From a virus (taxonomy: Duplodnaviria > Caudoviricetes): a stretch of DNA of 54,266 bases. A program made the position numbers and the translations under genes. Every line of letters begins with the position of its first letter. Position 1 is the stretch's first letter. The notes under the pieces are model-generated. The model did not search any database, had not been told where the DNA came from, and saw only the letters and a program-made list of their open reading frames with translations. The DNA lies in the IMG/VR virus record IMGVR_UViG_3300010354_007082, positions 1 through 54,266 of that record, one strand, 5' to 3'. Positions 5,301-49,028 of this stretch are shown piece by piece.

Positions 5301-5816
5301 CAATAATTCAACAATATTATCCATGTACTTTACTTGAGTTGCCCCTGGAACTACATATTCTAATACATGTTGTAATTCATTTGGATAATATTTACAGCCC
5401 CAACGATAGATAAAACTTGGTTCGGTAGGATCAGGATGCCAACTGAAATCAAATTTATTTGTGTCAACATCTTCATAAAACTTCCAGTTACTTGTAATAC
5501 TTACAATGCGGTATACAGGTGTTACATCATTTCTATAAATTTTATATTGTTCATTGGTATTATTTGAAACAAGCCAAGTTCCACTATCTTTTTGATGTTG
5601 ACTAGGCCATATGTTAATATGGTTAATTGCCCACATATCTTCGTCACGTAAACTATCAAAATTAAAATCAAAATCAAAATTAGAATAGTCACAAAACTCG
5701 TTTATTATCCAAAAGTGTTCCGTAGTGGCTAGGCTTTTCGCATGTTCAAAGTCACTAGCCTTACGTTCAGTTGGGTAAACATTAGGTTTTGCCCCGTAAT
5801 AAAATACATCTCTCAT
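2301..5816 (-). CDS. 1171-aa repeat protein built of degenerate glycosyltransferase-like units
   Basis: C-terminal LDIVFLSNGE...RVDGVNGRVKSYHAAA...WRTSFRE domain is visibly paralogous to 16137..17093; six FDFSWxPDP repeats and several longer degenerate units upstream. Confidence 0.7.
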   Translation of the reverse strand: MRDVFYYGAKPNVYPTERKASDFEHAKSLATTEHFWIINEFCDYSNFDFDFNFDSLRDEDMWAINHINIWPSQHQKDSGTWLVSNNTNEQYKIYRNDVTPVYRIVSITSNWKFYEDVDTNKFDFSWHPDPTEPSFIYRWGCKYYPNELQHVLEYVVPGATQVKYMDNIVELLPSKYMVQVQQVDNENFDLSWRPDPREPAFIYTWGNKYIPGAITPTLEYHVPGSSQRKYMTDDVPVKPEWDRWFLLHDVDEDSFDFSWRPDPWEPKFIYVFGNTQYSAEKMPTLQYVVEGATDKKYINDITVKLKHKPDLFEKLITDIEFDYSWVPDPYDPPMTYVFGNQWYGPEVMPTVKYVNKKGTTIKYVHDVIATIKQRPEHFENTRLVKKFDYSWIPNPNDDPYIYQFGTQWAKTHGPRYVVKDATVIKYVEDIIAEVLPSNEHWEIPENIRVDNFDFSWHPDGTSPPYIYQFGTTTDENDGPRYITPGNDGTVIKILRKEINPTDIPRYYIDNSLDELIEKHKNELFWACRSNLNYDNFDFSWRPNKDNSYHINAFGSPESELTCTYLVNGKMIAKGHKLINFVEHDTQITEEFLVQSFKKPDMFFVDRGNKESSERFSKLKELYPNIQRTRFLNTWVDTIVRCTKKSQTELCWILNSELDYTNFDFNYYPNPWQMSMVNVFGTQWNHWGTTYLVNCEKFEEDTKYIKIIEHLPNINHVKTRRAAITNCLYDVIVIDFGNTNINAFFDNINNKTSNKVKHTLRYCVDLYQTLLPLIEETKTDNFVWIVSTLSDYTDFDFTYVVDPFAIDQLHTFPCDKQKYGDTIFVNLNLLKDLDDLSKFDKINFNETFRTRRVECPIVTLDSDTMVDSVNSEFNFPYINFVTIDNADTKVKIDEPMSFWTVQDRNIIINSIGASNCIIPYDVVSYVKDELYDYPYIITSKTCVGSRPLDIVFLSNGEKLADEHYEYLIEHTKHLDNRVIRVDGVNGRVKSYHAAAIASNTPWMFTVFAKLKINPKFDFSWQPDRLQKPKHYIFHALNPVNGLVYGHQAMIAYNKKLVLGNSGVGLDFTLDSEHEVCRINSGIAMFNTDEFSTWRTSFRETIKLSASELPVDKLRLDIWCEKAEGNFAEYSTKGANDGVEYYNNVNGDIDKLKLSYDWPWCKQYFYNKYGNIK
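4340..5490 (-). repeat. Six tandem ~62-68 aa coding repeats FD(F/Y/L)SWxP(D/N)PxxPx(F/Y)IYx(W/F)G...Y..GAT..KY
   Basis: Copies: FDFSWHPDPTEP, FDLSWRPDPREP, FDFSWRPDPWEP, FDYSWVPDPYDP, FDYSWIPNPNDD, FDFSWHPDGTSP. Boundaries approximate. Confidence 0.85.
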
Positions 5817-5840
5817 AATTATATAGGCAGTTATAAAATT

Positions 5841-7331
5841 TTAATTTTCATACCCTGTTAGAACTTTAGTTTTATAAAAACTTTCAAATCTTTTCGCATC
5901 TTCAACATCATTAACCATTGGTTCCCCTCTTATGTTAAGTGATGTGTTTAATAACATAGGGCAATTTGTTTTTTCATACCATGCTTCAAGTAGTTTTCTA
6001 ATATTAGAATTATCTTTGGGCACAGTTTGAACACGACTTGTTCCATCGTAATGTGTAATGGCAGGAAATTTTTCAGGATAGGAACATTTTGCTATGACCT
6101 GCATATATCTACTATTAGTCCAATTTTTAGGCATAACAAAATATTCATTAACAAATTCTTCAAGAATCACAGGAGCAAAAGGTCTGAATTTTTGCCTACG
6201 TTTTATTTCATTTACTTTATCTTTTATTTCATTACCTCTAGGATCAGCAAGTAAACTACGATTACCTAAGGCCCTTGGACCAAACTCAGCACGTCCGTTA
6301 GCTACTCCTACAATTTTATTAGTTTCTAATTCATTAATAATTTTATTAATAGGATATGCTGCTACAATGTCTTTTCCAAGAAAAGCATTTTGCCAATTTA
6401 ATCTTTTTCCATAACCCAAAGCACAAGCCCCTAAACTAGAACCAGCATCTCCTGGATTTGGCATAATCCAAATATCATTAAAATATTTACCCAACAGTCT
6501 GTTAGCCAAACAATTTAAAGCAACTCCGCCCATATAAACAAGGTTAGAACTTTTACCAATAATATTGGCTTTTGAAATTATTTTTTCTATACATATTTCT
6601 GTTAACAATTGAGCACTTGATGCTATATCCATTTCATTAGCATCTTGTAAAAATTCTCGCTCGATACCTGCGTGTAAATTTTCCTTAAAATCTAATGTAT
6701 CTTCATCTAAAAATCTATTAATCATAGCATTAGTATGTATAGGATTACCATATGCTACCATACCCATTAAAATATATTCTTCATCTAATGGTTTTAACCC
6801 TACATGTTTTGTCATAGCACTATAAAATAATCCAATACTATTTGGATATTTTTTACTATATAATTTTTTATATTTGGCATATCCATTATTATCGTAGCTA
6901 GCGTCCCATATAGTTATTGTATCAAATTCTCCAATAGCATCAATTACTACAATAGTTGCGTCACTAAAATTACTTGTTTGAAAACCGGCGGCAGCGTGGC
7001 TTAAATGATGATTATGTGTGCGTATTTTATCAGTACCAATTAAATTAATAATTTCGTTACCAATCCGTTGTTTGGTACTACTAAAATCAATAGATTGACC
7101 TGCTCTAATTTGTCTTAATTGAGTTAACAATGGACGCTCATAATAATCAATAACTTTAATTTTATCAGTTTTGTAGTTTAGAGCGTCTAGCAAAATATCA
7201 ACATTAAGTTCTTTATCATGTTTTAATTTACTATATCGCTCAGTATGACCTGCGAACAATATATTTCCTTGGTTGTCAACCAACGATATACTAGCATCAT
7301 GAAAGTTATTACTAATACCTAAATAGTTCAT
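5841..7331 (-). CDS. O-carbamoyltransferase, NodU/CmcH/TobZ family
   Basis: FHDAS, ERYS, HHLSHAA, DAIGE, GGVALNC, GDAG, EFGPRALGNRS, RPFAP, LNTSLN motifs. Confidence 0.95.
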   Translation of the reverse strand: MNYLGISNNFHDASISLVDNQGNILFAGHTERYSKLKHDKELNVDILLDALNYKTDKIKVIDYYERPLLTQLRQIRAGQSIDFSSTKQRIGNEIINLIGTDKIRTHNHHLSHAAAGFQTSNFSDATIVVIDAIGEFDTITIWDASYDNNGYAKYKKLYSKKYPNSIGLFYSAMTKHVGLKPLDEEYILMGMVAYGNPIHTNAMINRFLDEDTLDFKENLHAGIEREFLQDANEMDIASSAQLLTEICIEKIISKANIIGKSSNLVYMGGVALNCLANRLLGKYFNDIWIMPNPGDAGSSLGACALGYGKRLNWQNAFLGKDIVAAYPINKIINELETNKIVGVANGRAEFGPRALGNRSLLADPRGNEIKDKVNEIKRRQKFRPFAPVILEEFVNEYFVMPKNWTNSRYMQVIAKCSYPEKFPAITHYDGTSRVQTVPKDNSNIRKLLEAWYEKTNCPMLLNTSLNIRGEPMVNDVEDAKRFESFYKTKVLTGYEN

Positions 7332-7441
7332 TTGTAAATATATGGGTCTTGTTCTTTCATTTTCTTAAGGCGTTGTCTAAACTTATACTCACGTATAATT
7401 TTTCCTATTGTAAAATGATATAATCTTCTAAACAAATTCAT
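7328..7441 (-). CDS. Small basic peptide (37 aa) coupled to carbamoyltransferase; not in ORF track
   Basis: MNLFRRLYHFTIGKIIREYKFRQRLKKMKEQDPYIYK; fills the gap exactly, ATGA overlap with the 7331 start, and overlaps the upstream gene end. Confidence 0.7.
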   Translation of the reverse strand: MNLFRRLYHFTIGKIIREYKFRQRLKKMKEQDPYIYK

Positions 7442-8450
7442 GGTTCATAGCCCCTAACCTATATTGATCCAGTTCTAAAATTAATATTTCACGCATGGTT
7501 TTTGTAAGTTGCTCGTTGTCAATCGCTCTATGAAGTTGAATACCCAATTTTGAATTAAAGAAATAATGTGCGCTTACTAAAAACTTAGTTTCGTCATCTA
7601 TAACTTCACTCGTAATCCACTTGTTATAATATTTTTGCGACAATACAAAATTAACAAAAAGATCATAATACTCTTTAGCTTGAGTTGAGCATTCACGTAA
7701 TGCTTTTGTATGTATCATACCTAACTGTGGAGCGATATTAAAACAATCTACTCCTGCGTCTAACCTTAAATTAACTTCTCTCGCATGTAGGTAATCAGCA
7801 TTATGTTCTTTAAATAAAAGATTGTTATTGTGTACTAATTCAGTAATTTTTGTTGTAGTATAATTATCAAAATTTCCCACTTGCTTGTGTTTGGTAAGAC
7901 TTCCCGTTTTGGCAACGAAATATTTAAGATTTGGTTTATATTGGTTTAAAAATGACATTTGGTTGTGGTAATAAGAAAAATCACCATTCGTATTACCGTT
8001 GTTATCCTCACTCCCGTATTCAAACATAACATTAGGATTATGTCTCAGGGCAAAGTTAAACAATCGTTCAGCAACTTGTATTTGCTCATTTTGTTCTACT
8101 CTGCTAACATCAATATGTAATAAATCAAAACCATTGTAAGTATCTGTTTGAATTGTGCCAAAACAACGATTTAGTGCTTGTTCTAAATCTAAACCAACAT
8201 CTTTATCACTAAAGTATGGACCACAATGGTCACGGCAAATTAACACATTTTCTTTTACATAATTTTTGTTATTTTTAATAAATTTTACAAGATTTGGTGT
8301 GCTAAAGGCATAACCACCATCATAATCAACTTGATTTCTGCTTGAAATAATTAATAAAGGAAAATCATTCTTAAAACTATATTCTAAACATAAATCTGTA
8401 ACTATAGGACTCATAGGTCCAACACCTAATTTAAATTTTTTCAAGTCCAT
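7428..8450 (-). CDS. GatZ/KbaZ-like (tagatose-6-phosphate epimerase-type) TIM-barrel protein
   Basis: SRNQVD..GGY, CRDHCGP, LHID, EYGSE, KEHNADYL, NIAPQLG match GatZ-family motifs. Confidence 0.75.
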   Translation of the reverse strand: MDLKKFKLGVGPMSPIVTDLCLEYSFKNDFPLLIISSRNQVDYDGGYAFSTPNLVKFIKNNKNYVKENVLICRDHCGPYFSDKDVGLDLEQALNRCFGTIQTDTYNGFDLLHIDVSRVEQNEQIQVAERLFNFALRHNPNVMFEYGSEDNNGNTNGDFSYYHNQMSFLNQYKPNLKYFVAKTGSLTKHKQVGNFDNYTTTKITELVHNNNLLFKEHNADYLHAREVNLRLDAGVDCFNIAPQLGMIHTKALRECSTQAKEYYDLFVNFVLSQKYYNKWITSEVIDDETKFLVSAHYFFNSKLGIQLHRAIDNEQLTKTMREILILELDQYRLGAMNHEFV

Positions 8451-8913
8451 TAATTACCCTTTCCAAATAGATACACGCATCTAATACTGCCCCACTGCCC
8501 GCATCACTTGGTGTAACATATTTAGCAGCTTTTTTTGCTTCTATTCTAGCAGTGTTAGGAGCTATACCAACCTTTACCTTTGATAATATGGGAGCGTCAT
8601 TATACCCATCTGCTATAAAAGCTGTAGTTTCTAAATCACAGTTATCGTAGAACCACTGTAATCTTTCTTCTTCACGCACTAAAATTAATTGATCTGGTCT
8701 ATATTTCCAATCTCTTACAATTCTACAATACGTAATATCCCATCCAGTCTCGTCGGCAGTTATAAACGTAATATCTTTAAGATATTTGGTAATTATTTTA
8801 AAACCATCTTTGTCATGTGGCCCAAAAACTTTAAAGGTTTTTCCATACTTGTTATATAAAATATGTCCAGTATTTAAAACTCCATCAACATCTAACACTA
8901 ATTTTTTAATCAT
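8431..8913 (-). CDS. KdsC/YrbI-like HAD phosphatase
   Basis: LVLDVDGVL motif I, KVFGPHDKDG, FIADGYND, G.GAV C-terminal motif. Confidence 0.85.
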   Translation of the reverse strand: MIKKLVLDVDGVLNTGHILYNKYGKTFKVFGPHDKDGFKIITKYLKDITFITADETGWDITYCRIVRDWKYRPDQLILVREEERLQWFYDNCDLETTAFIADGYNDAPILSKVKVGIAPNTARIEAKKAAKYVTPSDAGSGAVLDACIYLERVINGLEKI

Positions 8914-9629
8914 TTTTCTAAATAAAATTTGTCATACACTTTTGTATCTATGTCAATATCTGTATATAATTTGAATTGTTTTATAAATTGTTGTTTATAA
9001 AATACCTGCCCACTAACATAATTTATATTACGTGCCTGATCAGTAAGCTTGTTTGGATTAATAGACATATCAATAACGCATTTTACTCTATCGGACAAAT
9101 GTTTAAATGGACTTATATTTTCTATGGTTCCCAATCCTGTACAATTAATAACTACATCAAACTCTGAATGTCTTTGTTCCCAGTTGTTCAAACTTCTGCT
9201 GAATACTGATAGATTAACATATTTATTTGCTGTCAGGAAGGTTATAAACATTCTTCCTATTGACCCATTGCCCAAAATACACACATTACTGAAGCTGTTT
9301 ATATTATTACAAACATAAGCTACACCAAAAACATCGGCATTATAACCATGTAGTTTACCAGTTTTATTTATAATAGTATTACAAGACATATAATCTGTCA
9401 CACTTTTATCAACGTAGTCTAACTCTTTGATAACCAAACTTTTAAAAGGCATACTAATTGATATGCCCTCATACTTTTTTTTAGCTTCTAATAAATCCTT
9501 TTGTATATTTTGAATTGACGAACTTTTGGGCATATAAACACTATCGCAATTATAATAGTTAAAAAACTTATTATAAAAATACTTACCCTGTGTTCCTGGA
9601 TTTGAACTATAGCTCACATATGTTTTCAT
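8910..9629 (-). CDS. Shikimate dehydrogenase (AroE)-like oxidoreductase
   Basis: SISMPFK, SCNT, GYNAD, LGNGSIG, VINCT motifs in AroE order. Confidence 0.75.
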   Translation of the reverse strand: MKTYVSYSSNPGTQGKYFYNKFFNYYNCDSVYMPKSSSIQNIQKDLLEAKKKYEGISISMPFKSLVIKELDYVDKSVTDYMSCNTIINKTGKLHGYNADVFGVAYVCNNINSFSNVCILGNGSIGRMFITFLTANKYVNLSVFSRSLNNWEQRHSEFDVVINCTGLGTIENISPFKHLSDRVKCVIDMSINPNKLTDQARNINYVSGQVFYKQQFIKQFKLYTDIDIDTKVYDKFYLEK

Positions 9630-9955
9630 CTTTTAAAAGCATGTATAGAATAGATTTTTCCATCTTTAAAAGTAATTACGTCAACTACATTTAAAAAGGT
9701 TGATTGTCCGTTTACAATAATATTGATTAATAACTCTGAAAAAACGGTTTGATCTTCACAGGCATTCTGTAATATAGTAACTTTAACACTGTCAACCTTA
9801 TCAAATATTTGTTTATTTGCTTCTAATACTTTATCACGACCTGATACATTATTGTCCCAATCAATTAATTGTACATTAGGATGAAACATTTTCTCTAATC
9901 CTAACAAATCTTTGTTGCTAAATTTATTAAAATATTGTTCAACTTTATTTTTCAC
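9626..9955 (-). CDS. SnoaL/NTF2-like protein
   Basis: 109 aa; YF..F..KDL..L..MF...V.L.DW...GR, VVDVITF.DGKI..I.AF pattern; GTG start overlapping upstream stop. Confidence 0.8.
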   Translation of the reverse strand: MKNKVEQYFNKFSNKDLLGLEKMFHPNVQLIDWDNNVSGRDKVLEANKQIFDKVDSVKVTILQNACEDQTVFSELLINIIVNGQSTFLNVVDVITFKDGKIYSIHAFKR

Positions 9956-11478
9956 TATTGTTCCTCAAATAACTTTATACCTAAATACCAAAGTAATAAA
10001 TCAAAGTCAGGAGTATGTAAGGGAGCCATATTCCAAAATATGATCGGCACTAACAATTTTGTTTTTTTAACACTATAATTTTTACTAATTAAAAAATCCT
10101 CAACTATTTTAATATATTGTTCGTAGTTTTGAATATGAGGAATGGTTAATTTAACATGACCATTATTGTACTCATATTGAAAGTTGTTGTTTTTTACTTC
10201 ACTGTAATTAATTATAAATCCACCCAATAATTTAGCAAAATCATAATATATGTCGCCAACCTCAACTAATCCAGCAAATTCATGTCTCCAATCAATTATT
10301 TTAAAATGTTGCGAACTGTCTATAATAATATTATCAAATTGTAAATCCCCGTGTATGAAACCAGGCATGTTTATATTTTCAAGCATATCCCAATCAATAT
10401 TATTTAAGTAATAATAGTATGGTTTAACAGGAATATTGTTAACAGTGTGGGCATTGCCTATATTTGGATACTTTTTTAAAAATAAGTTAACACGTTGTAA
10501 TGTTTTTTCTTTATAAAACTTTTTACAATAGCTATCCAAAGATATATTTTTTTTATTCCAAACTTTGCTATCAAACCAATTTAATAAATTTAGAAGTATA
10601 TCTACGGAGTAATTTTTATAAACAACCTCGCCTTCAAAGTAATCATATACCAGCCATTGCCCAATATTGTTTACATTATTAGGAAATATATTAGTGTTGA
10701 GTTTTGTTTTTTCATATTTTTTCTTTGGTATGGATTCGTCCAAAAACCACTTGATAACTTTATTACTAGTAAAATAAGTAATTTCGTCAGTTTTGGTAAA
10801 ATCGTATTTTTGTGTTTTTTTTACTTCACTATTATATATTTCTAAATTACCAAAATCTTTCCAAGAATTTAAATTAACTTGATTAGTGTCTTTTTCTATA
10901 GCAAATACAATTTCATTACTCTGTGAGGATGACAATCTATGTTTAAAATTAACATAATCTTTGATAAACATAACACCAGTAAATGCTTCCCAATCCATAG
11001 TCTGTTGTATCTTAAACGTCATGTCCTTTACTTTGTTGTTTTGAATTTTAAACATTGTGTAGTGTTCAGACATTTCAGTTGGAACATTTTTTGTAAAAAC
11101 AGTATCGTGCTTTAAGTTAAAACTAGTTAAATCTTCATTATAATATGTATCACAAGGTATATACCAAAATTCACTATTCAAAATATCAAAACACTTACTT
11201 ATTGTATAACCTGGGCCCGATTTTTCACTAACGTAATCATCGATTATAACAAATTTTATTTTTAAAAAAGGATAAACTAACTTACAATAATCAATAACTT
11301 GTTGTGATTGATATCCAATTGGAATTATAAATTGTGTATCTGTAGGAAAACTTTCTATAATATGTGAAAGTATGGGTTTATTTTTATAAGGAATTAATGA
11401 TTTGTTTAAAAATTGAGTAAGTTTTCCTAACCTACTACCCAATCCTGCAGTTGGTATGACTACTGTATTTTTATTCAT
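9955..11478 (-). CDS. Fused sugar-nucleotidyltransferase + APH/choline-kinase-like phosphotransferase
   Basis: N-terminal VIPTAGLGSRL..LT...NKSL; C-terminal HGDLQFDNII, IIDWR, GDIYYDFAKL. Start moved from 11538 to MNKNT at 11478 (overlaps upstream stop). Confidence 0.85.
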   Translation of the reverse strand: MNKNTVVIPTAGLGSRLGKLTQFLNKSLIPYKNKPILSHIIESFPTDTQFIIPIGYQSQQVIDYCKLVYPFLKIKFVIIDDYVSEKSGPGYTISKCFDILNSEFWYIPCDTYYNEDLTSFNLKHDTVFTKNVPTEMSEHYTMFKIQNNKVKDMTFKIQQTMDWEAFTGVMFIKDYVNFKHRLSSSQSNEIVFAIEKDTNQVNLNSWKDFGNLEIYNSEVKKTQKYDFTKTDEITYFTSNKVIKWFLDESIPKKKYEKTKLNTNIFPNNVNNIGQWLVYDYFEGEVVYKNYSVDILLNLLNWFDSKVWNKKNISLDSYCKKFYKEKTLQRVNLFLKKYPNIGNAHTVNNIPVKPYYYYLNNIDWDMLENINMPGFIHGDLQFDNIIIDSSQHFKIIDWRHEFAGLVEVGDIYYDFAKLLGGFIINYSEVKNNNFQYEYNNGHVKLTIPHIQNYEQYIKIVEDFLISKNYSVKKTKLLVPIIFWNMAPLHTPDFDLLLWYLGIKLFEEQ

Positions 11479-11908
11479 GTTCACTAGATATTTTACCGTG
11501 TGTTCTTCCTTGATCGTCCTGTAGTCTAAAAACATCATCTAATTCAGGGGTGCTTGCTTCCATAAACTCTAAATCTGTGATAGCAACAACTCTATGTACA
11601 TAATTAGGAAAAACATTAAATATCACACCAGGCATCAAGTCAACTATGTCCATTGATTTTTCATAATCATTGACTTGTTCATTTGACATACCTTTGGTTA
11701 AAAAAGTATTGATGTTAAAAACATCCCTACTTATGTAAAGTTTACCTGAGCCACTTAAAACATAATTTGTTTCTGTTTTAAATTGATGAACTTGTAAACT
11801 TGTTCTATTTCCTGCTAAAAACAAAATTCTTTTTAATGCGTATGGAGTTTTAATTCCGTCGGCTATCCAAAGTTCCTGTCCCCAATGTTTTTTAACAACT
11901 TTTGTCAT
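11471..11908 (-). CDS. Cupin, mannose-6-phosphate isomerase type II-like
   Basis: KHWGQE, RTSLQVHQFKTETNYVLSG, HRV, EASTPELDDVFRLQD; likely start MTKVV at 11908 after AAAGG. Confidence 0.8.
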   Translation of the reverse strand: MTKVVKKHWGQELWIADGIKTPYALKRILFLAGNRTSLQVHQFKTETNYVLSGSGKLYISRDVFNINTFLTKGMSNEQVNDYEKSMDIVDLMPGVIFNVFPNYVHRVVAITDLEFMEASTPELDDVFRLQDDQGRTHGKISSEHE

Positions 11909-11918
11909 AAAATTACCT

Positions 11919-12677
11919 TTAATCATTATATATCAATCTTTCACACAACCAATTTAAACTATAACCTGATTTTGTCTGATACCAAAGATGGCTTAATTGT
12001 TTTATACTTTCATAGTCATTTAGATAATAATTTCTAGATATGCTTCTCAAAATAAAAATATCACTTATTGGTGTGATATGTTTAATGTTTGTAAAAAATT
12101 CTTTGAAAATATTTGCTAAATGGACATGTATATTGCTATGATCGGATATTGTTTGAATGTCTTGGTCGATGTTTTTAAGTTTTAACATCTCTTTGTATTT
12201 TCCAATTAATATCACATCTTGCATATGAAAACCATTACGTAGATTTTCATTACTTTGTCCTATATAACCATATATACAATTATCTTCTATCTCATCTAAA
12301 AATTTATCCCACAAAGTTAAATCGTTTTTGAATACTAAATCAGGTCTTAATAGAATAACAACATCATAAAGTATATTGCTTTTTAACATTAAATCTAATA
12401 CGCTATGCCAACGATTTAACATAAGCTTATTAGTAAAAAGGTAGTCAACGTCATTTTTATTATCAATTTTACTATCAAAACAAAGTAAAACATCATTAAT
12501 TTTTTCCGTTGTAATTTTTTCTGAAAGATTAATGTTTAACTTTTCGTTATACTCTGTTGAAATATCCCAAGTACTAAAATAGTAATGAACATAATCTGAA
12601 AGTTTATTAAACTCCCAGTATTTGTAAGCTCTATCGAATTCTCGATACTCTCCAGCTATTAATACTGCTATCTTCAT
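11919..12677 (-). CDS. Putative glycosyltransferase-like protein (KIAVxxxGxxR...YDxVxxxRxD family)
   Basis: MKIAVLIAGEYR, YFSTWD, YDVVILLRPDL, QDVILIG; paralog of 13402..14208. Confidence 0.5.
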   Translation of the reverse strand: MKIAVLIAGEYREFDRAYKYWEFNKLSDYVHYYFSTWDISTEYNEKLNINLSEKITTEKINDVLLCFDSKIDNKNDVDYLFTNKLMLNRWHSVLDLMLKSNILYDVVILLRPDLVFKNDLTLWDKFLDEIEDNCIYGYIGQSNENLRNGFHMQDVILIGKYKEMLKLKNIDQDIQTISDHSNIHVHLANIFKEFFTNIKHITPISDIFILRSISRNYYLNDYESIKQLSHLWYQTKSGYSLNWLCERLIYND

Positions 12678-13405
12678 AAATCCACATTAGATAACAAATT
12701 ATTATTACTTATATAGTCTAATAAACGTTCTGCCCAAGCATTATGTCCTTCAATAAGAGGATGATGATTTGGGCCACGTGGGAATTTGTTTCTATCAGAA
12801 AACATACTAAATGAATCGTTAACTATAAATCTGGGAGTCAATCGTTGATTAAGAATATAGCTGGGTACATGTTTTATCTGGTCATCAAAAATAGTTTTAT
12901 AATGAAATGAATAAGTTAAAAGATAAGGGATTTTGTGTTGCCTTAAAAAATTCTGTATGCCCAAAATCATTAATTGATCAAATTCATGTTCACTTTTATC
13001 ACTTGAAAAACTTTTTACCATAAGCTCCCATAGTTTATGTTCATCTGTATAGTCAGGTGGTTCATGTGTAAGCATGTGAACATAATACTTATTACGTTCA
13101 CTATTAAAAAATTCTCTGCGTAAACAATGTGTTATACTTACGTTGACAAAAATTTCACTAGGATCATAGTTTGTAAGTGCTTCACTAATGTTCTCTACTA
13201 ATTTTCTATAAGCACGTTGATTACTACCTCCAGGAAGTGCGGTGTTTTTATAGTTAAGATACCCCAATTTATCGGACATGATTCCACTATAACAATGTTT
13301 ACGTTGAAAGTTACTAAAATAATAAAGATTTCCTGGTTCTCTTGGACCGTCTAATTCTTGTCCAAAAGCATAACTGTCGCCTGTAACGTAAAATAACTTG
13401 GTCAT
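12674..13405 (-). CDS. SGNH/GDSL-like hydrolase or acyltransferase
   Basis: VTGDSYAFG block I, GGSN block II, HHPLIEGH..WA block V. Confidence 0.65.
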   Translation of the reverse strand: MTKLFYVTGDSYAFGQELDGPREPGNLYYFSNFQRKHCYSGIMSDKLGYLNYKNTALPGGSNQRAYRKLVENISEALTNYDPSEIFVNVSITHCLRREFFNSERNKYYVHMLTHEPPDYTDEHKLWELMVKSFSSDKSEHEFDQLMILGIQNFLRQHKIPYLLTYSFHYKTIFDDQIKHVPSYILNQRLTPRFIVNDSFSMFSDRNKFPRGPNHHPLIEGHNAWAERLLDYISNNNLLSNVDL

Positions 13406-14208
13406 TTATAAATCTCATTATTTAATTGAACTATTTTATCATAGTCATTAACTACATGTAATCCTATTCCATCTTTGTTCACTGCGTCTTTACGGTATAC
13501 ACACTCACTTAACGATTTTGCTGAACGAAAAAATTTAATGTTAGTATGTCTCAAGTATTCACTCATTAGCGTGCCTGGACCTAGAAAATCACAATCTTCA
13601 GGTATATGGTATTTGCGTTCACTTACCATAAACCAATATATGTCACTAATTACATCCATTACTTCACTACTACCATAATATATTACATCACTAATATTTA
13701 CTCTGTCATACTCCATACCCATTCTACCATTATGTGTTCCATAAAAGTCATAAGGTTTTTTATAATCATATGGATCGTTTAGTCTGTAATCTAACTCAAA
13801 TGTATGGTATGGAATAAACACAAGATCATATCTAGATTTAATAACAAAATCAAATTCAAAGTTATGTTCTAACTCATATTCTCTTTTCAAGTAATTTGCT
13901 CTCATTTGACTATAATAAAGTGAGTCCCACGGAATTATATCATTAGGTAAATCTTCTCGTGACTCTATTACAATTTTTTTAGGATTTAATAAATTGGTAA
14001 TTTCTTCTATTAAAACATTTTTTGGTACTACTTCATGTTTCCAACTTAATACATTATCTTCTCGAACCTTGTAGGTATTATAGTCCCAAGCGTGGCAAAA
14101 ATAATAATATGAGTAATTTTCATTGTTCTGAAAAAAATTTAGTGTACTTGGTAACGCATATTTGTACGTGCGAGGTTGACCACTTAAACATACAGCAATT
14201 TTATACAT
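13402..14208 (-). CDS. Putative glycosyltransferase-like protein, paralog of 11919..12677
   Basis: KIAVCLSGQPR, FCHAWD, LKREYE, FDFVIKSRYDL, SDVIYYGSS. Confidence 0.55.
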   Translation of the reverse strand: MYKIAVCLSGQPRTYKYALPSTLNFFQNNENYSYYYFCHAWDYNTYKVREDNVLSWKHEVVPKNVLIEEITNLLNPKKIVIESREDLPNDIIPWDSLYYSQMRANYLKREYELEHNFEFDFVIKSRYDLVFIPYHTFELDYRLNDPYDYKKPYDFYGTHNGRMGMEYDRVNISDVIYYGSSEVMDVISDIYWFMVSERKYHIPEDCDFLGPGTLMSEYLRHTNIKFFRSAKSLSECVYRKDAVNKDGIGLHVVNDYDKIVQLNNEIYK

Positions 14209-14210
14209 AA

Positions 14211-14714
14211 TTAAAACTCAACAAAAAGTTCCTTATTGTTTTTAGTAAGACAAATAGTACTTATTTGTCTTGACTTTAAAAACTTATAAAAATTTAATTC
14301 ATGTGGTTCTTGACGGAAATAACATCTATAGTATTCACAAGCATGATTAAAGGTTAGTGAATTAGCACAAAACATAGACGGGAAAATACCCGTTCCAAGT
14401 CCAGGTCTCCAATTACCTTTGTAATAATACAAAGTCCTAAAATGTAAATTATTTGGCAGTTCAAAGTAATCAATTAAAGAATCTGAGCAATCATACAAAA
14501 TGTTTATATAGTAGGTAAATCTATGATTGATTTCATATAATCTCTTATCAAACGCGGTATTAAATATTTTTGTAAAGTAATCAGCTTGTTTTTCTGTATA
14601 GAAAAAGTCTAATTTATAATTTGGCAAAAGATTACGAAACTTATCTTTTATTATAGGTATATAATCATTATTTTGATTTACCAAACATATCCCGATTTTA
14701 TTTAATACAATCAT
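14211..14714 (-). CDS. Hypothetical protein, possibly a degenerate member of the same family
   Basis: KIGICL, DKRLYE, MFCANS loosely echo 13402..14208 motifs; ATGA-coupled. Confidence 0.45.
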   Translation of the reverse strand: MIVLNKIGICLVNQNNDYIPIIKDKFRNLLPNYKLDFFYTEKQADYFTKIFNTAFDKRLYEINHRFTYYINILYDCSDSLIDYFELPNNLHFRTLYYYKGNWRPGLGTGIFPSMFCANSLTFNHACEYYRCYFRQEPHELNFYKFLKSRQISTICLTKNNKELFVEF

Positions 14715-16165
14715 GTATATTCACACTGTTTATAAAAATCAACAAATTCAGGAAAATAATCAACAAACTTGGTATTGTTTCTACGATCATATTCACTGTA
14801 AAACAAATAAAAGTCTTTCATAGCTGTTTGTAAATTAAAATCTATAGGTCCATTTATCCAATCTATAAGTCTTTGAATCTTACTTATTTCAAAGTCATAA
14901 AATCCCTTAAACAAATTGTCTTTTGTTCTTTGATTATTCTCCATAAATTCTTTTGTTTTATAAAGTTCAGGTAAAAAATCTTTGTTAATTTTAGCGTTAA
15001 GCCATATTGGGTATTCAAGTTGTGGCATATCAAACCAAACCAGCTGGCGGTCTGTATTGTATTTAAATCTTAAATCTAAAATGTTTTTAATATATTCGTA
15101 GAAACCAACATAACTTAACACATTAAAGGTAATAATAAAAGTCAAACTATGAGCAGAACCTTCACTTAAATATTGATTTATATTTTTATATAATAAATTA
15201 AAGTCCATTCCATTTCTTATATACTCAGCTTGCTTGCCCCAACTATCAAGACTACAAAACAACATAAAATGCTCAAAAGAATCTGTGCTAGTCATATCGT
15301 GAAGGGAAGTCATAAACTTACTCCATTGGTTTCCAGGTGGACAGCAATTGCTTGTTATACTAAGATGTAAATCTTTTTTTGGATTTTTCTTTACATAATC
15401 AAAAATCCTAAAAGTACTTTTATCCATTAATGGTTCGCCACCAGTCATTCTAAATGTTTTTAGTGTGGGATATATTGTAGGGAACCATTCCCAAAAAGCT
15501 AGCAAGTACGGATTATCAGGCCCATTTTGTGGCCACATATTAGCATTTTTCATCCATATGGTATCATTGTGTTTTGTATTACTTAATTGATATGGACCGT
15601 TTTTATCTATATCTTTCATCCACTCAGTGCTTAAATGCGGGCTACAATAACTACATTTAAAATTACATGCTTGGTTAAAATTTACTTCAACATACCTAGG
15701 GCGAGCGTTCCCAACATAACCTAATTTAAGTGCTTCTTTGATTATTCCTTCTTCATAGATATCATTACTACGATAAGCTCTATCACTTAGTTGTTCTCCG
15801 CTGTCCTCTATTCTCCAACAAAATTCACATTCATTTGGACGAACTCCATCCAACATTAATTTTCTTTGTTCTTTTTTATATTTTGTATTATGTAAAGCAC
15901 TTACATCTATTTCAATTTCTTGTAAAGGTATATGATGACTGCGTGGATGATAACAGCTATGTGTTTGACCTGTAGGAATATGTATACTTACATTAAACCA
16001 CTTAGCCAAACAAAAACTTGGGCTAACCTCATTTAACTTTTCAAATACTTTTTTTGTGTTGTGACCATAGTAACTTTCAAATTGGTCATTATTTACAACT
16101 GATTCATTACCTTTCGTACCCTGTATTTCTGACAATTTACCATCCTTCAATTTGGCGTATAACAT
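14711..16165 (-). CDS. Radical SAM protein with N-terminal twitch/SPASM-like Cys cluster
   Basis: CNFKCSYC, TGGEP, SLDS..YIRNG; N-terminal CLAKW, SCYH, CEFC. True start may be TTG at 16135. Confidence 0.88.
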   Translation of the reverse strand: MLYAKLKDGKLSEIQGTKGNESVVNNDQFESYYGHNTKKVFEKLNEVSPSFCLAKWFNVSIHIPTGQTHSCYHPRSHHIPLQEIEIDVSALHNTKYKKEQRKLMLDGVRPNECEFCWRIEDSGEQLSDRAYRSNDIYEEGIIKEALKLGYVGNARPRYVEVNFNQACNFKCSYCSPHLSTEWMKDIDKNGPYQLSNTKHNDTIWMKNANMWPQNGPDNPYLLAFWEWFPTIYPTLKTFRMTGGEPLMDKSTFRIFDYVKKNPKKDLHLSITSNCCPPGNQWSKFMTSLHDMTSTDSFEHFMLFCSLDSWGKQAEYIRNGMDFNLLYKNINQYLSEGSAHSLTFIITFNVLSYVGFYEYIKNILDLRFKYNTDRQLVWFDMPQLEYPIWLNAKINKDFLPELYKTKEFMENNQRTKDNLFKGFYDFEISKIQRLIDWINGPIDFNLQTAMKDFYLFYSEYDRRNNTKFVDYFPEFVDFYKQCEYT

Positions 16166-17093
16166 CCATCTCTTTAACTAACAATCCTTTGTTATACTTA
16201 TCTGCACCATAATGACGTTTAAAGAATTTACTTTGCTCAATATTAAACATACACATAGGTAATCCTAACTTATCGTGTAATTCTATACCAATCTGTTCTG
16301 ACATTTCTGTAGGATCTTTTTCCTTACAATGTTCATCCCATAATTTAGGATAATTATCAAACCACTGTACATTATTTGGATCCCAATCAGTTAACATAGT
16401 TAGATATGTACCTAATCTCGCTCCATATATCGCCCATATTCCGTTATCCACATCTGTCCCAACATTTTGCCATATAGTAAGATTGTTAAGATTTCTACTT
16501 GCCACACTTGTTTTAAACTCATCAATGTTTGGTACACGTCCACCATGTAATACCATTTTTACGCCTTCACGAAATCCAGCACGCCATGCTTGAAAACTTG
16601 TATAGTTTGGATATGTAATACTATAACAATCAGCCATAGCCCAGTAAATATTATCTCTACTATCTAAACAAAAATCTACTGTGGTTGTGCGGTTTCCATC
16701 ACTATGTTCATGCGTTTTCATATTAGCAACATAAGTTTTAGTCCAACTACTCATACCACCATTGCCATATCGTAATCCATTAATATGATTAATTGCTTTC
16801 CAACGATATTGTGCTATTTTATAAACAGGATCTTTACCACGAAAATCAAACTGCCCATTAAAGAATTCAGGATGTGGCATGTTATCACCGTCAATCAATA
16901 TAAAACGTTCAGTATCACTTGCTTCTCCTGCTGCTTTATGAGCAGCATCACTACCTTTTACACCATCAACACGCTTTGCCCATGGCACCATGTTTTTTAT
17001 TTTTAACCAAAATTCTTCTTTTTGTGGTTCATCATAGCTTAGATAGATACAATCTAAGTCAGCAATATCTATAATATCAAGTTCTGTACTCAT
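16137..17093 (-). CDS. GT-A-fold glycosyltransferase-like protein
   Basis: DCIYLSYDEP, RVDGVKGSDAAHKAA, FILIDGDN (DxD), NGLRYGNGG, AWRAGFREGVKM. Confidence 0.65.
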   Translation of the reverse strand: MSTELDIIDIADLDCIYLSYDEPQKEEFWLKIKNMVPWAKRVDGVKGSDAAHKAAGEASDTERFILIDGDNMPHPEFFNGQFDFRGKDPVYKIAQYRWKAINHINGLRYGNGGMSSWTKTYVANMKTHEHSDGNRTTTVDFCLDSRDNIYWAMADCYSITYPNYTSFQAWRAGFREGVKMVLHGGRVPNIDEFKTSVASRNLNNLTIWQNVGTDVDNGIWAIYGARLGTYLTMLTDWDPNNVQWFDNYPKLWDEHCKEKDPTEMSEQIGIELHDKLGLPMCMFNIEQSKFFKRHYGADKYNKGLLVKEMDVIRQIEGW

Positions 17094-17409
17094 AAACTTT
17101 TATACTCCAACGTTTTATATCAATAAAATCTTCATCAACAATAACACTAACATCATATGAATGACAAGATTTACCTTCTTTGCTAGGTACTAATTTCTCA
17201 ACAATTACAAAATCTTTACGTCTTACAATTTCTCCATCTATTACACGTACATCATATCTTGATTCGGCAAAAGTTTGACTATCAATAACAATATAATTAC
17301 CAGGCAAATCTTCTGTGGTATAATGTAATACACTTCCTTTCTCGTCATAATACAACCTAAATTCAGGTTTATTAATCTTAGGTGCTTCAAAAATGACTTG
17401 TTCACTCAT
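17077..17409 (-). CDS. Hypothetical protein
   Basis: 110-aa ORF overlapping both neighbours within the operon. Confidence 0.7.
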   Translation of the reverse strand: MSEQVIFEAPKINKPEFRLYYDEKGSVLHYTTEDLPGNYIVIDSQTFAESRYDVRVIDGEIVRRKDFVIVEKLVPSKEGKSCHSYDVSVIVDEDFIDIKRWSIKVYEYRT

Positions 17410-18191
17410 AATAAATTACAAAAATTTTTATTTACATAATGCACAGGATATTTTTGTGCGTAACAATTAATCTTAAAACAATCATCACTTACTTCATAAA
17501 TTAAGTTTTCAGTCCAATCTTCACTAAAAATATTATTGATTTCCTTTTTCATATGAACAAAACTAAAATCAGTAAAACAATCTAGTGTGGTATGTTCATA
17601 TCCAACAATATGACTAGCTAAACTATATACCCAATCTGTTGTGGCAGGTTCATTTTTGTTACAACGTAAGATTTTTTTATACTGATCCCAATTTTCAAAA
17701 ACATTTCTAACAACTTTATAGAACTTTTCAGCTAGTTCTGATTTACGAAAATATGTTAACCCATTATATGTATCAGGTAATTTGTTGTCTGTAATAAACT
17801 TTCTATAGAACTTTACTTGGCTTAATTCTTGTCTAAAGGTTCTGATGTTAGTACAAACAACCACATCTTTGATAGATAATGCTTCCCAATAATAATCTAT
17901 ATTATATGGAACATAAATGTCTGCTTCAATTTTAATGGTATGTTTGTATGGACTTGCTTCATAAACTTGCCAATCATTTATTAATTTCCAATTACTATAG
18001 GGTGCTAAATCTCCATGTGGCAATTTTACAATATGATCAAAGTTAATGTCACTTATATCTTCATCTGTTAATAACGTTACATGACAATTGGGCATGTAAC
18101 TTTTTAAGCTTCTAGCACAAAGTTTGGCACAATCAATATAGTTTGTGTTTTTTGTGTTTTGTGCGTAGATTAGATAACCATATTCAATCAT
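17406..18191 (-). CDS. GT8-like nucleotide-diphospho-sugar transferase-like protein
   Basis: GYLIYA..., SPYKHTIKIEAD (ExD), YFRKS, FVHMK; paralog of 18188..18988. Confidence 0.55.
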   Translation of the reverse strand: MIEYGYLIYAQNTKNTNYIDCAKLCARSLKSYMPNCHVTLLTDEDISDINFDHIVKLPHGDLAPYSNWKLINDWQVYEASPYKHTIKIEADIYVPYNIDYYWEALSIKDVVVCTNIRTFRQELSQVKFYRKFITDNKLPDTYNGLTYFRKSELAEKFYKVVRNVFENWDQYKKILRCNKNEPATTDWVYSLASHIVGYEHTTLDCFTDFSFVHMKKEINNIFSEDWTENLIYEVSDDCFKINCYAQKYPVHYVNKNFCNLL

Positions 18192-18988
18192 AATAAACTC
18201 AACAATTTACTTTTATCCAACATATGAAAATCAATATCTTGTATTGTGATATATTCTTGTTTTGTTCTACCATAAATCGTTTTATCAAAGACTGCGGTAA
18301 AATCAGTACAAATTGTTGAATTATTATTTTTATAAAATTCGTGTATTTTTCCTACATGTAATAAATTCCATGGGATAACATCACAATGATTAAACAAATG
18401 CCCGTTCACAATATCTAGTGCTAATGTAAGAGCATAATCATTTCTAAATTGTGTAGGCATAAAGTTATGTATGTATCCATAATGACTGTAGTTGTTTTCA
18501 ATCATTTCCATACAATCAAAAACTTGTTTAGATTTTAAAGTTTTCTTAAAGGTGATGACGGTTGCCCAAAAAGTTTGATGACTATAATTTGATAAAAATT
18601 CTTGTTTATAATCATAAAAATTAACATACTGTACAGTATTATGAGCACATATATCAGTAACAAAATCAAACGTGGTTAATAATTGCTTAGAATTAATTAC
18701 ATAATCCACATCAAGTAATATTGTATTGTCATATGGACTAATCTCATAAGCAAGATATCTACCTTTATTGATCCAAACTTTATTACGTAATTGGTTACTA
18801 TCGTTTGGTTCTACAAAAATTACTTTGTCAAACTTGTGTGTTGTATCACTATTAAAAGTTTCTGTATTAGTAATTAGTGTGACTGGTAAATCTAAAAAAT
18901 AGTTTACACGTTCAGCACAATGTTTTGCCATACTATAGTAATCATAATTTATTGTATTATGAGCAAAAAGCAACACACCGTTTTTCAT
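18188..18988 (-). CDS. GT8-like nucleotide-diphospho-sugar transferase-like protein
   Basis: GVLLFA, SPYDNTILLDVD (DxD), WATVITFKK, FRNDYA, DFHMLDK. Confidence 0.6.
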   Translation of the reverse strand: MKNGVLLFAHNTINYDYYSMAKHCAERVNYFLDLPVTLITNTETFNSDTTHKFDKVIFVEPNDSNQLRNKVWINKGRYLAYEISPYDNTILLDVDYVINSKQLLTTFDFVTDICAHNTVQYVNFYDYKQEFLSNYSHQTFWATVITFKKTLKSKQVFDCMEMIENNYSHYGYIHNFMPTQFRNDYALTLALDIVNGHLFNHCDVIPWNLLHVGKIHEFYKNNNSTICTDFTAVFDKTIYGRTKQEYITIQDIDFHMLDKSKLLSLL

Positions 18989-19290
18989 CGTTTATTTTCA
19001 AGCTTCTTGTATTCTGTATACCATTCATCCATTACAGTATGATACCTGTTTTTACAAACTTCAAGCATTTGTTGTGTGTTTACACGTACTGGAACTTTAT
19101 ATTGGTCAATCATTACTACAAATTCTGTATTAACGCTTTCTAAAAAGGCAATTAAGTTAATATCAATTTTCCAAAGTCCTTGTTGTTCTGCTACAATAAG
19201 CTTACTTTGATATTTGTTTTGTAGATAATCGGTTGCTATTTGATGGGCAAAACGAAGTTTTGCTTGTTCAACCAATAGTTTAGTATCCAT
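18985..19290 (-). CDS. Hypothetical protein, first gene of the modification operon
   Basis: 101 aa, RBS GGAG, preceded by TGTAAATA. Confidence 0.75.
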   Translation of the reverse strand: MDTKLLVEQAKLRFAHQIATDYLQNKYQSKLIVAEQQGLWKIDINLIAFLESVNTEFVVMIDQYKVPVRVNTQQMLEVCKNRYHTVMDEWYTEYKKLENKR

Positions 19291-19306
19291 AAATTACTCC
19301 GTAGAG

Positions 19307-19314
19307 TATTTACA
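19307..19314 (-). promoter_or_regulatory. Late promoter-like TGTAAATA
   Basis: Intergenic TAAATA core upstream of RBS and ATG at 19290. Confidence 0.5.
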
Positions 19315-19336
19315 ATTGATTATGTTGAGTGAAAAA

Positions 19337-20299
19337 TTATGAACCTGAAACTGTACCAGCAATTAGTACAGTGCCCCAACTATTACTAATATTATTTGTA
19401 CTAGGGGGTCTTACTACGCAAGTTGTTGATGATCCTGCTGAAATTGTTATTCCAGAAGGAATTTCATCCCATACAGTGTATAATGTAATAATATTACCTG
19501 CGTCACTATTACTACCTTGCGTACCATTTGATTTGGCTATTACTCTTATTCTTCCATTACCACCATAATAATAATAGTAATAATAACTAGAGCTTGCAGT
19601 TTGTGAGAATAATTGAGCGTTACTACTATTAAGTGCGTAATACCCATTATTAGTAGATATAATAGGAGTGCTTCCCCCTCCACCAATTTTTGTTACTCCA
19701 TTATAATTTGTACTAGCAACAATAATTGTACCTGACGTTGGCGCACTAAGCACAACTGTTCCGATAGCACCTGCTAATCCGCTCATTGTTCCATTGAATC
19801 CTGAACCAGCAGGATGACTACACGTAATAGCGATTTGACCGCCTGCGTTAAAAAAGTAACGTGCTGCGTCACCACTTACAAATGTAATATTATGTTGAAA
19901 AGTTACACTAGTTCCCCATGTTGAACCATAAGTTTGTACATTGCTGGTAGTTGTTCCTTGTGCGGTAGCGTTTAGCCTATTAGTATAAATTGTTGTAAGA
20001 TTTGTTGGGATAGCTGATAAAAATGTGATAGTACCACCAGATACAGGAGCACTTACACTTGTTATTGTTGATCCTTGATGTAATGCTGATAGTGCTGTAC
20101 TATTAATTAAATTAGCCCAACTAGTTGCGGTTACAACATCACCTACGTTTACTGTGGCTAGTGCTGTCTGACCATAACCTGCGCTTGAACCTCCTACAGC
20201 CCAAACCGTGTTTAATCTGTTAGCTGTAGTTCCGGGACTTGTCCCCACTAAATTGTTATAATCCGTAGCTTCAACTGAGCCATATTGTGCGTAGGTCAT
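19337..20299 (-). CDS. Virion structural/fibre-associated protein
   Basis: Thr/Ser/Gly-rich; GYGQT, ARYFFNAGG motifs; follows fibre gene; contains a 7-Tyr run. Confidence 0.6.
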   Translation of the reverse strand: MTYAQYGSVEATDYNNLVGTSPGTTANRLNTVWAVGGSSAGYGQTALATVNVGDVVTATSWANLINSTALSALHQGSTITSVSAPVSGGTITFLSAIPTNLTTIYTNRLNATAQGTTTSNVQTYGSTWGTSVTFQHNITFVSGDAARYFFNAGGQIAITCSHPAGSGFNGTMSGLAGAIGTVVLSAPTSGTIIVASTNYNGVTKIGGGGSTPIISTNNGYYALNSSNAQLFSQTASSSYYYYYYYGGNGRIRVIAKSNGTQGSNSDAGNIITLYTVWDEIPSGITISAGSSTTCVVRPPSTNNISNSWGTVLIAGTVSGS

Positions 20300-45318: not shown

Positions 45319-45334
45319 ATCTTTCTCTTTTTAG

Positions 45335-45342
45335 TATTTATC
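45335..45342 (-). promoter_or_regulatory. Late promoter-like GATAAATA
   Basis: Intergenic, upstream of AGAGA RBS and ATG at 45318. Confidence 0.6.
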
Positions 45343-45362
45343 ATACCAAAATAGTAGTGTTT

Positions 45363-45815: not shown

Positions 45816-45832
45816 AACATATCCTAGTTTAA

Positions 45833-49027: not shown

Positions 49028-49028
49028 A

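Follow-up and report, generated by a model that had tools for sequence, protein, structure and literature searches.

A jumbo-phage gene cassette that may supply a nucleotide-activated rare sugar by way of a GatZ-like epimerase

Nucleotide-sugar pathways set which sugars a cell or a virus can put on its surface, and new ones are rarely found. The nucleoside diphosphate (NDP)-D-glycero-D-manno-heptose pathways employ GmhA, an HddA or HldE kinase, GmhB, and HddC or HldE/HldC, and fused LicCA unites a choline kinase with a cytidine triphosphate (CTP):phosphocholine cytidylyltransferase. Here we analyze a 54,266-bp virus record from IMG/VR (IMGVR_UViG_3300010354_007082; this whole stretch is referred to as the window) with a CheckV completeness estimate of 13%, in which six co-directional, overlapping open reading frames (ORFs) on the minus strand at 7428-11926 combine enzyme families that are not known to work together. 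On balance, we favor the view that these six genes form a single operon with coupled translation, in which a jumbo phage carries its version of a conserved pathway of five enzymes plus a SnoaL accessory protein, and that the pathway makes a nucleotide-activated rare sugar for glycan assembly. Such a pathway, if true, gives a function to the SdhL class of dehydrogenases and to a short GatZ-like subfamily. In phages the cassette points to virus-encoded synthesis of a rare glycan that may be carbamoylated, with consequences for host recognition, superinfection exclusion and the shielding of virions. Additionally, six small soluble proteins make the pathway directly testable.

Two described systems serve as precedents for the chemistry of this cassette. 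As set out in the accessible portion of PMC13326640 (citing He et al., Nat Chem Biol 2026), the phage route to uridine diphosphate-arabinofuranose (UDP-Araf), known from phage HY126 with counterparts in RB69 and DLP3, starts with an arabinose-5-phosphate isomerase (API) that interconverts a ketose phosphate and an aldose phosphate. The C-terminal kinase domain of AfhE phosphorylates arabinose 5-phosphate at C1, the HAD phosphatase AfhF removes the 5-phosphate, and the N-terminal nucleotidyltransferase domain of AfhE then makes UDP-Araf. The second system, for which the accessible part of PMC11907403 is our source, is a phosphorylation-epimerization-dephosphorylation route to tagatose in which GatZ and KbaZ, long annotated as aldolase chaperones, act as 4-epimerases that convert fructose 6-phosphate (F6P) into tagatose 6-phosphate. 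Their modeled mechanism is a Zn-dependent retro-aldol/aldol reaction with Asp87, His88, Glu171 and His257 at the metal site.

Read from its upstream end, the cassette in the window begins with a phosphomannose isomerase (PMI)-type cupin of 151 amino acids (aa) at 11471..11926 on the minus strand, which matches PF01050 weakly and has homologues that pass the cut-off. There follow, all on the same strand, a fusion of an N-terminal nucleotidyltransferase and a C-terminal APH-family kinase (527 aa, 9955..11538), recognized by Pfam, NCBIfam and a PDB profile; a SnoaL/NTF2-like protein with a GTG start (109 aa, 9626..9955; PF12680 SnoaL_2, 49.2 bits, cut-off 27); an SdhL-type, shikimate-dehydrogenase-like (AroE-like) NAD(P) oxidoreductase (239 aa, 8910..9629; Shikimate_dh_N, 33.6 bits, cut-off 27); a KdsC-like C0-type HAD phosphatase (160 aa, 8431..8913; Hydrolase_3, 31.1 bits, cut-off 20.9, and TIGR01670); and a GatZ-like enzyme of class II aldolase fold (340 aa, 7428..8450; GatZ_KbaZ-like PF08013, 46.7 bits, cut-off 26.7). 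An earlier reading of this DNA made from the letters alone, here called the sequence-only reading, had named these six enzyme types as overlapping members of one cassette, and all six ORFs are found with their families supported. It also located the cassette rightly, but its interval of 7428..11908 ended 18 nucleotides (nt) short of the cupin start at 11926.

The genes overlap by 1 nt (fusion and SnoaL), 4 nt (SnoaL and AroE-like), 4 nt (AroE-like and KdsC-like) and 20 nt (KdsC-like and GatZ-like). For the cupin and the fusion the overlap is 68 nt when counted from the first ATG of the fusion and 8 nt when counted from its residue M21. A start at M21 (position 11478) is implied by P0001 (507 aa, 98% identical), and by this comparison M21 is the likely true start. 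The first-ATG start would create a 68-nt out-of-frame overlap (11471-11538) with the strongly conserved C-terminal tail of the cupin, and tblastn matches to fusion residues 1-20 in phage loci may merely reflect constraint on that tail. Upstream, a 252-aa ORF shares 8 nt with the start of the cupin gene. Scanned for promoters and terminators, positions 5500-19500 yielded 100 promoter-like sites where 93.6 were expected and 5 terminator-like sites where 3.9 were expected, and so gave no hint of where the operon begins or ends. Short near-identical contigs from one metatranscriptome library (X20), a kind of library that can contain DNA, map to the dehydrogenase, the cupin/fusion junction, the downstream carbamoyltransferase and genes upstream.

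The fusion protein belongs to a widespread family, with 863 relatives in a word-indexed search and 701 clusters at 50% identity (E<=1e-30) in an exhaustive profile search. Members occur in candidate phyla radiation (CPR) bacteria, DPANN archaea, Planctomycetota, Legionellaceae, Bdellovibrionota, Pelagibacteraceae and a large jumbo-phage clade. A single-sequence query with the fusion confirmed no relative among related loci, so that a family alignment (A1) was needed; with it a fusion relative was found on 210 viral and 127 genome contigs, and 80 of each were taken as loci. When the window proteins were compared with these 160 loci by tblastn, the GatZ-like enzyme was detected in 75 of the 80 viral and 69 of the 80 genome loci, the cupin in 69 of each, the AroE-like dehydrogenase in 70 and 55, the KdsC-like phosphatase in 30 and 59, and the SnoaL protein in 35 and 5. 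Clustering of ORFs, limited to loci with at least 4 kb on each side of the fusion gene (58 viral, 52 genome), returned viral and genome counts of 56 and 49 for the GatZ-like enzyme, 56 and 47 for the cupin, 52 and 36 for the AroE-like dehydrogenase, 26 and 43 for the KdsC-like phosphatase, and 22 and 5 for the SnoaL protein. The sequence-only reading had staked its proposal on the genes being found together elsewhere, and five of the six do lie around the fusion gene in most of the 80 viral and 80 bacterial or archaeal loci. Such grouping greatly exceeds what chance would give. The set is kept while its gene order varies among lineages, which argues for selection that acts on the set, rather than for descent as a single block. 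The proposed six-gene unit is thereby upheld as a five-gene core of cupin, nucleotidyltransferase-kinase fusion, dehydrogenase, KdsC-like phosphatase and GatZ-like enzyme, but the SnoaL protein is an accessory only.

Natural fusions connect members of the same set. Ten unusually long forms of the fusion family that were examined comprise six with an N-terminal cupin, one with a C-terminal glycosyltransferase of family GT2, one with a C-terminal GatZ-like domain and two without an extra Pfam domain; some of these may be read-throughs of gene calling, though they point in one direction. A FastTree analysis of 127 fusion proteins, a quick tree in which several branches were marked as long, separates viral from cellular rows by a single branch (support 91), and the window lies within a clade of 50 viral rows (support 100) with a within-clade identity of about 50%. 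This nesting at such divergence indicates that the cassette has long been carried within phages.

Cellular loci place the cassette among genes for glycan assembly. For example, in a Legionella metagenome-assembled genome (MAG; locus L086) and an archaeal MAG (L125), it lies among genes for a Wzx-type flippase, GT2 and GT4 glycosyltransferases, WavE, a PglF-like dehydratase, methyltransferases and B12-radical SAM enzymes. Further recurrent cellular neighbors are GT2 and GT4 genes, a second nucleotidyltransferase, a phosphatase resembling inositol monophosphatase (IMPase) and a 4,6-dehydratase-like short-chain dehydrogenase/reductase (SDR). Judged by this gene content, the cellular context is that of polysaccharide synthesis loci.

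As a single sequence the GatZ-like enzyme matches PF08013 over residues 14-128 only, its N-terminal third, whereas its family profile aligns over positions 18-258 with E. coli GatZ (2fiq) at E 3.9e-13, with the DH, HxD and HxxDY motifs in register. The AlphaFold model (mean predicted local distance difference test, pLDDT, of 95.1) superposes with a TM score of 0.79-0.82 on the 2fiq chains, 0.75 on 3txv and 0.50-0.60 on class II fructose bisphosphate (FBP) aldolases. Invariance of catalytic residues was counted across 75-119 members per cassette family, and in this family D74, H75, H112, E144 and H216 are invariant. D74-H75 aligns with the DH motif of GatZ and H216 with the histidine of its HSTDY motif; the counterpart of Glu171 is ambiguous, as E144 is invariant but E148 aligns to the GTE of GatZ. 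The likeness to the GatZ/KbaZ tagatose route thus extends to fold, Pfam family, the positions of the Asp-His and His motifs and the pairing of an epimerase with a sugar-phosphate phosphatase, and the differences are that the window protein has 340 rather than 420 aa, shares 13% identity with GatZ and sits in an activation pathway. Profile and model together suggest that it is probably a ketose-phosphate C4 epimerase. It may instead be a true aldolase joining dihydroxyacetone phosphate (DHAP) to an aldehyde, but its fold and profile are nearer to GatZ than to GatY, KbaY or FBA.

For the dehydrogenase, the family profile finds its best PDB match over the full length in 1npy (H. influenzae HI0607, SdhL; E 9.7e-75, 254 bits), as compared with about 1e-54 and at most 187 bits for canonical AroE and 156 bits for YdiB. 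Its catalytic Lys/Asp pair (K63, D99) is invariant, as are N84 and T85. None of the 17 AroE-type equivalog models listed from NCBIfam reached its cut-off, the best being TIGR00507 with 86.5 bits against 200.2. By these scores the protein is closer to SdhL than to AroE or YdiB. We know of no physiological substrate for SdhL HI0607, and our literature search on SdhL returned nothing beyond work on the E. coli sorbose operon. Unlike HI0607, the window dehydrogenase is shorter (239 aa) and has a sugar-activation context, with no link to aromatic amino-acid genes seen. Thirteen of the 52 genome loci have a classical FabG-like SDR (for example at 10587-11309 of locus L158), and none of these has an AroE-like gene as well. 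Since one or the other is found in 49 of the 52, never both, the redox step appears to be obligatory, with two unrelated folds able to supply it.

The fusion has its N-terminal sugar-1-phosphate nucleotidyltransferase and its C-terminal APH-type kinase in one chain, which is the architecture of AfhE. The APH domain scores 25.5 bits in Pfam (cut-off 23.2), and the kinase motifs HGDLQFDN and IDW are invariant in alignment A1. Against NCBIfam the nucleotidyltransferase domain matches Arch_glmU (E 2.1e-12) and HddC (E 1.2e-8), and the family profile finds HddC 6jq8 in the PDB at E 7e-5. In the cupin, Q45, H47, E52 and H111 are conserved in 100% of 117 family sequences, and they match a Gln-His-Glu-His set that we take to be the metal site of type II phosphomannose-isomerase-like cupins. 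Its homologues in the archaeal and Legionella loci exceed the PF01050 cut-off with 32.7 and 30.4 bits, respectively. A sequence search of the PDB with the cupin gave nothing below E 0.5. The cupin is probably a ketose-phosphate/aldose-phosphate isomerase, as its family membership and metal ligands suggest.

The phosphatase has an invariant DxD nucleophile motif (D8, D10), matches KdsC structures in the PDB at 2.5e-12 to 1e-6 and matches the KdsC model TIGR01670 at E 3.1e-16 (59.7 bits, below the cut-off of 106.95). The SnoaL protein matched only a designed NTF2 protein in the PDB, and its distribution marks it as an apparent accessory rather than a core component. In the 52 phage loci where the AroE-like, cupin and GatZ-like genes are all present, the SnoaL and KdsC-like genes are almost mutually exclusive, with 21 loci having SnoaL only, 21 KdsC only, 1 both and 9 neither. 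Consequently, the window carries a rare six-gene form. We also observe that the KdsC-like proteins of viral loci are 68-80% identical to that of the window, as compared with 40-50% for the other cassette proteins.

How the cassette relates to the described activation routes can now be stated. Like AfhE and AfhF, it has a nucleotidyltransferase followed by an APH-type kinase, a HAD phosphatase partner and a ketose-phosphate/aldose-phosphate isomerase, and the shared logic would run from a sugar n-phosphate through the 1,n-bisphosphate and the sugar 1-phosphate to the NDP-sugar. It differs from them in that the isomerase is a PMI-type cupin and not a SIS-domain API, the phosphatase is KdsC-type and not GmhB-like, the core GatZ-like and SdhL-type or SDR enzymes have no counterpart, and the surrounding genes concern glycans and not nucleotide metabolism. 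The order of chemistry also resembles NDP-heptose synthesis, and the isomerase-kinase-phosphatase-nucleotidyltransferase analogy drawn by the sequence-only reading fits the enzyme types found, with a nucleotidyltransferase domain that weakly resembles HddC. That the route would be analogous but non-homologous is borne out in part. No cassette protein matched the GmhA SIS isomerase, the GHMP/PfkB kinase or the GmhB-type phosphatase in Pfam or NCBIfam, but the nucleotidyltransferase domain belongs with those of HddC, LicC and RmlA, and the phosphatase, like GmhB, is a HAD enzyme. Moreover, the cassette adds an epimerase and a dehydrogenase. It therefore works like the AfhE/AfhF and NDP-heptose routes and is a member of neither. 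No description of this combination of enzymes was found in a full-text literature search, which left most subscription journals outside; the earlier statement that no described pathway has it accordingly stands for the combination, but not for the nucleotidyltransferase and APH-kinase architecture, already reported for AfhE in the part of PMC13326640 available to us.

Two precedents, epimerization by GatZ/KbaZ (PMC11907403) and the AfhE/AfhF route (PMC13326640), each known from part of its report, supply the logic of the route that we propose. In a first step, the GatZ-like enzyme would use metal-dependent retro-aldol/aldol chemistry to epimerize F6P or sedoheptulose 7-phosphate at C4. An NAD(P)-dependent oxidoreduction by the SdhL-type enzyme, or in some cells by the classical SDR, would follow, after which the PMI-type cupin would turn the ketose phosphate into an aldose phosphate. 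The kinase domain would then phosphorylate the anomeric C1, the KdsC-like phosphatase would remove the distal phosphate, and the N-terminal nucleotidyltransferase domain would join the sugar 1-phosphate to a nucleoside triphosphate (NTP). Neighboring transferases would afterwards attach the sugar to a glycan and, in phages, also add a carbamoyl group to it. We infer every chemical step of this route, including the starting ketose (a hexulose or a heptulose), the nucleotide and the acceptor, from sequence families and from analogy.

Several points weigh against such a sugar-activation pathway. Its substrate, nucleotide and product are guesses, and the dehydrogenase has no fixed place or direction in the scheme. 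The nucleotidyltransferase domain reaches only 17.5 bits for NTP_transf_3 in Pfam (cut-off 27), and the cupin of the window only 18.8 bits for MannoseP_isomer (PF01050; cut-off 23.6). The KdsC-like gene is missing from 32 of the 58 viral loci, where the phosphatase step would thus need a host enzyme. All 80 genome loci are MAGs or single-cell assemblies, and consequently no glycan structure can be linked to the cassette. The relation to AfhE-type proteins appears remote and is seen by way of Enterococcus phage proteins, which match the fusion over its full length (E 1e-10 to 4e-12, 23% identity, 93% coverage). Acinetobacter phages are matched more weakly, Ac42 at 6e-3 and Maestro, in the nucleotidyltransferase domain only, at 3e-2, and RB69 and HY126 are not among the fusion matches listed (40 of 62 matching records). 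The remote nucleotidyltransferase-kinase matches in phages do adjoin HAD or isomerase genes. Finally, the best solved relative of the nucleotidyltransferase domain is the phosphocholine cytidylyltransferase LicC (E 2.3e-7), and the JGI source annotations of fusion homologues include choline kinase and CTP:phosphocholine cytidylyltransferase-like; together these leave room for an alcohol or polyol substrate.

The last two points are also the starting place of the strongest alternative, in which the cassette makes a polyol or alcohol phosphate activated by cytidine diphosphate (CDP), following the logic of LicCA or of CDP-ribitol and CDP-glucitol. A ketose phosphate would be epimerized, reduced to an alditol phosphate, dephosphorylated, re-phosphorylated elsewhere by the kinase, cytidylylated and installed as a phosphodiester-linked decoration. 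This scheme gains from the fact that a ketose-reducing dehydrogenase belongs to the core, with either of two unrelated reductase families filling the slot, and from the existence in the PDB of a keto-sugar reducer of the shikimate-dehydrogenase family, 5-ketofructose reductase 7cok (profile E 1.9e-43). The order of a nucleotidyltransferase followed by an APH-kinase is also that of LicC/LicA. Unlike that system, however, the cassette has sugar-phosphate enzymes as partners (cupin isomerase, GatZ-like and KdsC-like), and no choline-related genes are present. Moreover, the polyol scheme leaves without a role the PMI-type cupin, which is nearly as conserved as the kinase and often fused to it, and the one natural fusion to a transferase joins a GT2 glycosyltransferase and not a phosphotransferase. 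LicC-like structural similarity is reported for sugar-activating AfhE-type proteins as well, in the accessible portion of PMC13326640. We regard a polyol product as unlikely.

Less probable still is the possibility that the activated sugar serves phages as a donor for hypermodification of virion DNA, as in arabinosyl-5-hydroxycytosine phages, to which we give little credence. It would agree with AfhE, the sole enzyme of the same architecture that we met as characterized, serving DNA arabinosylation (PMC13326640, as far as its accessible part goes), and with the remote homologue in Enterococcus phage 9183, which sits among thymidylate kinase, thymidylate synthase, dUTPase and DNA polymerase genes. 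In the window, however, the cassette lies between tail, baseplate and fiber genes and putative glycan enzymes, and no gene resembling thymidylate synthase or a deoxynucleoside monophosphate (dNMP) kinase is seen in its 54 kb (~13% of the genome). The neighbors conserved along with it in phages are a GT-A-like protein, a carbamoyltransferase and a radical SAM enzyme, and in cells the homologues are accompanied by flippases.

GatZ-family proteins and polyol dehydrogenases cooperate in galactitol and tagatose catabolism. A module for the catabolism or salvage of some rare sugar of the tagatose/galactitol type, carried as auxiliary metabolic genes, is nonetheless very improbable, for although that cooperation and the sorbose induction of the E. 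coli ST648 sdhL gene beside the L-sorbose operon (PMC12817954, in its accessible part) speak for it, it has no place for a nucleotidyltransferase, and the neighbors conserved with the set are flippases and glycosyltransferases rather than transporter or phosphotransferase system (PTS) genes. An origin of the sugar from a cyclitol, which the sequence-only reading had offered as one option, found no support; the genes conserved with the set include none for a DHQS/EEVS-like protein or an inositol-phosphate synthase.

In the phage, the cassette belongs to a larger group of genes. Downstream of it, after a gap of 96 nt, lies a NodU/NolO-like carbamoyltransferase (5841..7331, minus strand; Pfam Carbam_trans_N/C, phrog_1601 at E 7e-100) that is found in 56 of 80 viral loci by tblastn and, by ORF clustering, in 42 of 58 viral and 5 of 52 genome loci. 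It is part of the phage island and not of the core. Further upstream, a twitch-domain radical SAM enzyme (14711..16165, minus strand; NF033640, 303.8 bits, cut-off 170) has relatives in 53 of 80 viral loci and 1 of 80 genome loci, and may tailor the sugar or the glycan. Next to it, a 318-aa ORF (16137..17093, minus strand) with a GT-A-like fold is tblastn-positive in 63 of the 80 viral and none of the 80 genome loci. In its model (pLDDT 83.9) the first ~160 residues adopt a GT-A fold with Z scores of 9.3-8.0 to glycosyltransferases over about 140 residues, the best Foldseek match is the PBCV-1 capsid glycosyltransferase (E 4.6e-4), and the D-x-D pair D68 and D70 is invariant. On this moderate evidence it is a probable GT-A-fold glycosyltransferase. 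In the ESM Atlas, this protein and a 268-aa phage neighbor retrieved only unnamed viral clusters, the nearest named one being GT2 at 0.87, below the trust level. A large protein related to the 1171-aa ORF of the window is present in 65 of the 80 viral loci.

The 252-aa ORF that overlaps the cupin start (11919..12677, minus strand) has no family match in Pfam, NCBIfam or PHROG-type profile scans; it is a paralogue (BLASTP E 4e-5, 28% identity over 135 aa) of a DUF7796-like gene at 13402-14208 (minus strand) that has relatives in 51 of 80 viral loci. Multi-copy families found only in phages, namely the DUF7796-like paralogues and clusters c6, c9 and c12, occupy the stretch between the cassette and the radical SAM gene. 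The same stretch includes a DUF6071 protein (12674-13405, minus strand); a related phage cluster gives a faint GDSL lipase/acylhydrolase match, and the protein may act on a glycan as an O-acyl esterase or transferase.

Taking core and island together, we advance a fuller proposal, one that we hold tentatively and with somewhat less than even confidence. With a GatZ-type epimerase, the cassette would make a nucleotide sugar for which no biosynthetic route has been described; candidates include a hexose of the NDP-talose or galactose type and a heptose epimeric at C4. The orphan SdhL class would gain a first physiological role. Rak2/Atu_ph07-like jumbo phages would use the cassette as the donor-supplying core of a vertically inherited island of ~ten genes, including the GT-A-like transferase, the DUF7796 paralogues, the carbamoyltransferase and the twitch radical SAM enzyme. 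The product of this island would be a carbamoylated glycan, placed either on virions or on the envelope of the infected cell.

The assignment to this phage group comes from the baseplate genes. The window is AT-rich (GC 28-39%) with nearly all genes on the minus strand, and at 41965-53071 (minus strand) it carries a T4-type baseplate block recognized by Pfam, with gp6-like, gp25, gp53 and a hub with an OB domain. Over 95-100% of its length, the gp6-like wedge protein (1117 aa) shares 32-34% identity with wedge proteins of 337-490 kb jumbo phages, among them Sinorhizobium phage Phosso, Agrobacterium phage Atu_ph07, and Munch, 7t3 and Erwinia SNUABM (Salmonella, Klebsiella and Erwinia jumbo phages). 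From the size and identity of these relatives, the source appears to be a Rak2/Atu_ph07-like jumbo myovirus of roughly 400 kb. A DNA-level search of cultured phages with the 4.5-kb cassette gave no match, and near-identical DNA was found in aquatic metagenomes from 13 studies, with 3 rows possibly being the source sample.

Other genes in the window merit brief mention. A Bmp/PnrA-like ABC substrate-binding lipoprotein is encoded by the phage at 1158-2279 (minus strand; PF02608, E 3.5e-61) and has no homologue in the 160 related loci. Adjoining the baseplate genes, a giant ORF of 6540 aa (22341-41963, minus strand) has as its only Pfam matches DUF4214 repeats (E 4e-13) and faint FG-GAP, BNR-like and E1_FCCH similarities; it is probably a giant fiber or structural protein. 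Additionally, a 402-aa protein (20309-21517, minus strand) contains a Peptidase_G2 intramolecular-chaperone autoproteolysis domain of the type seen in tail spikes and fibers.

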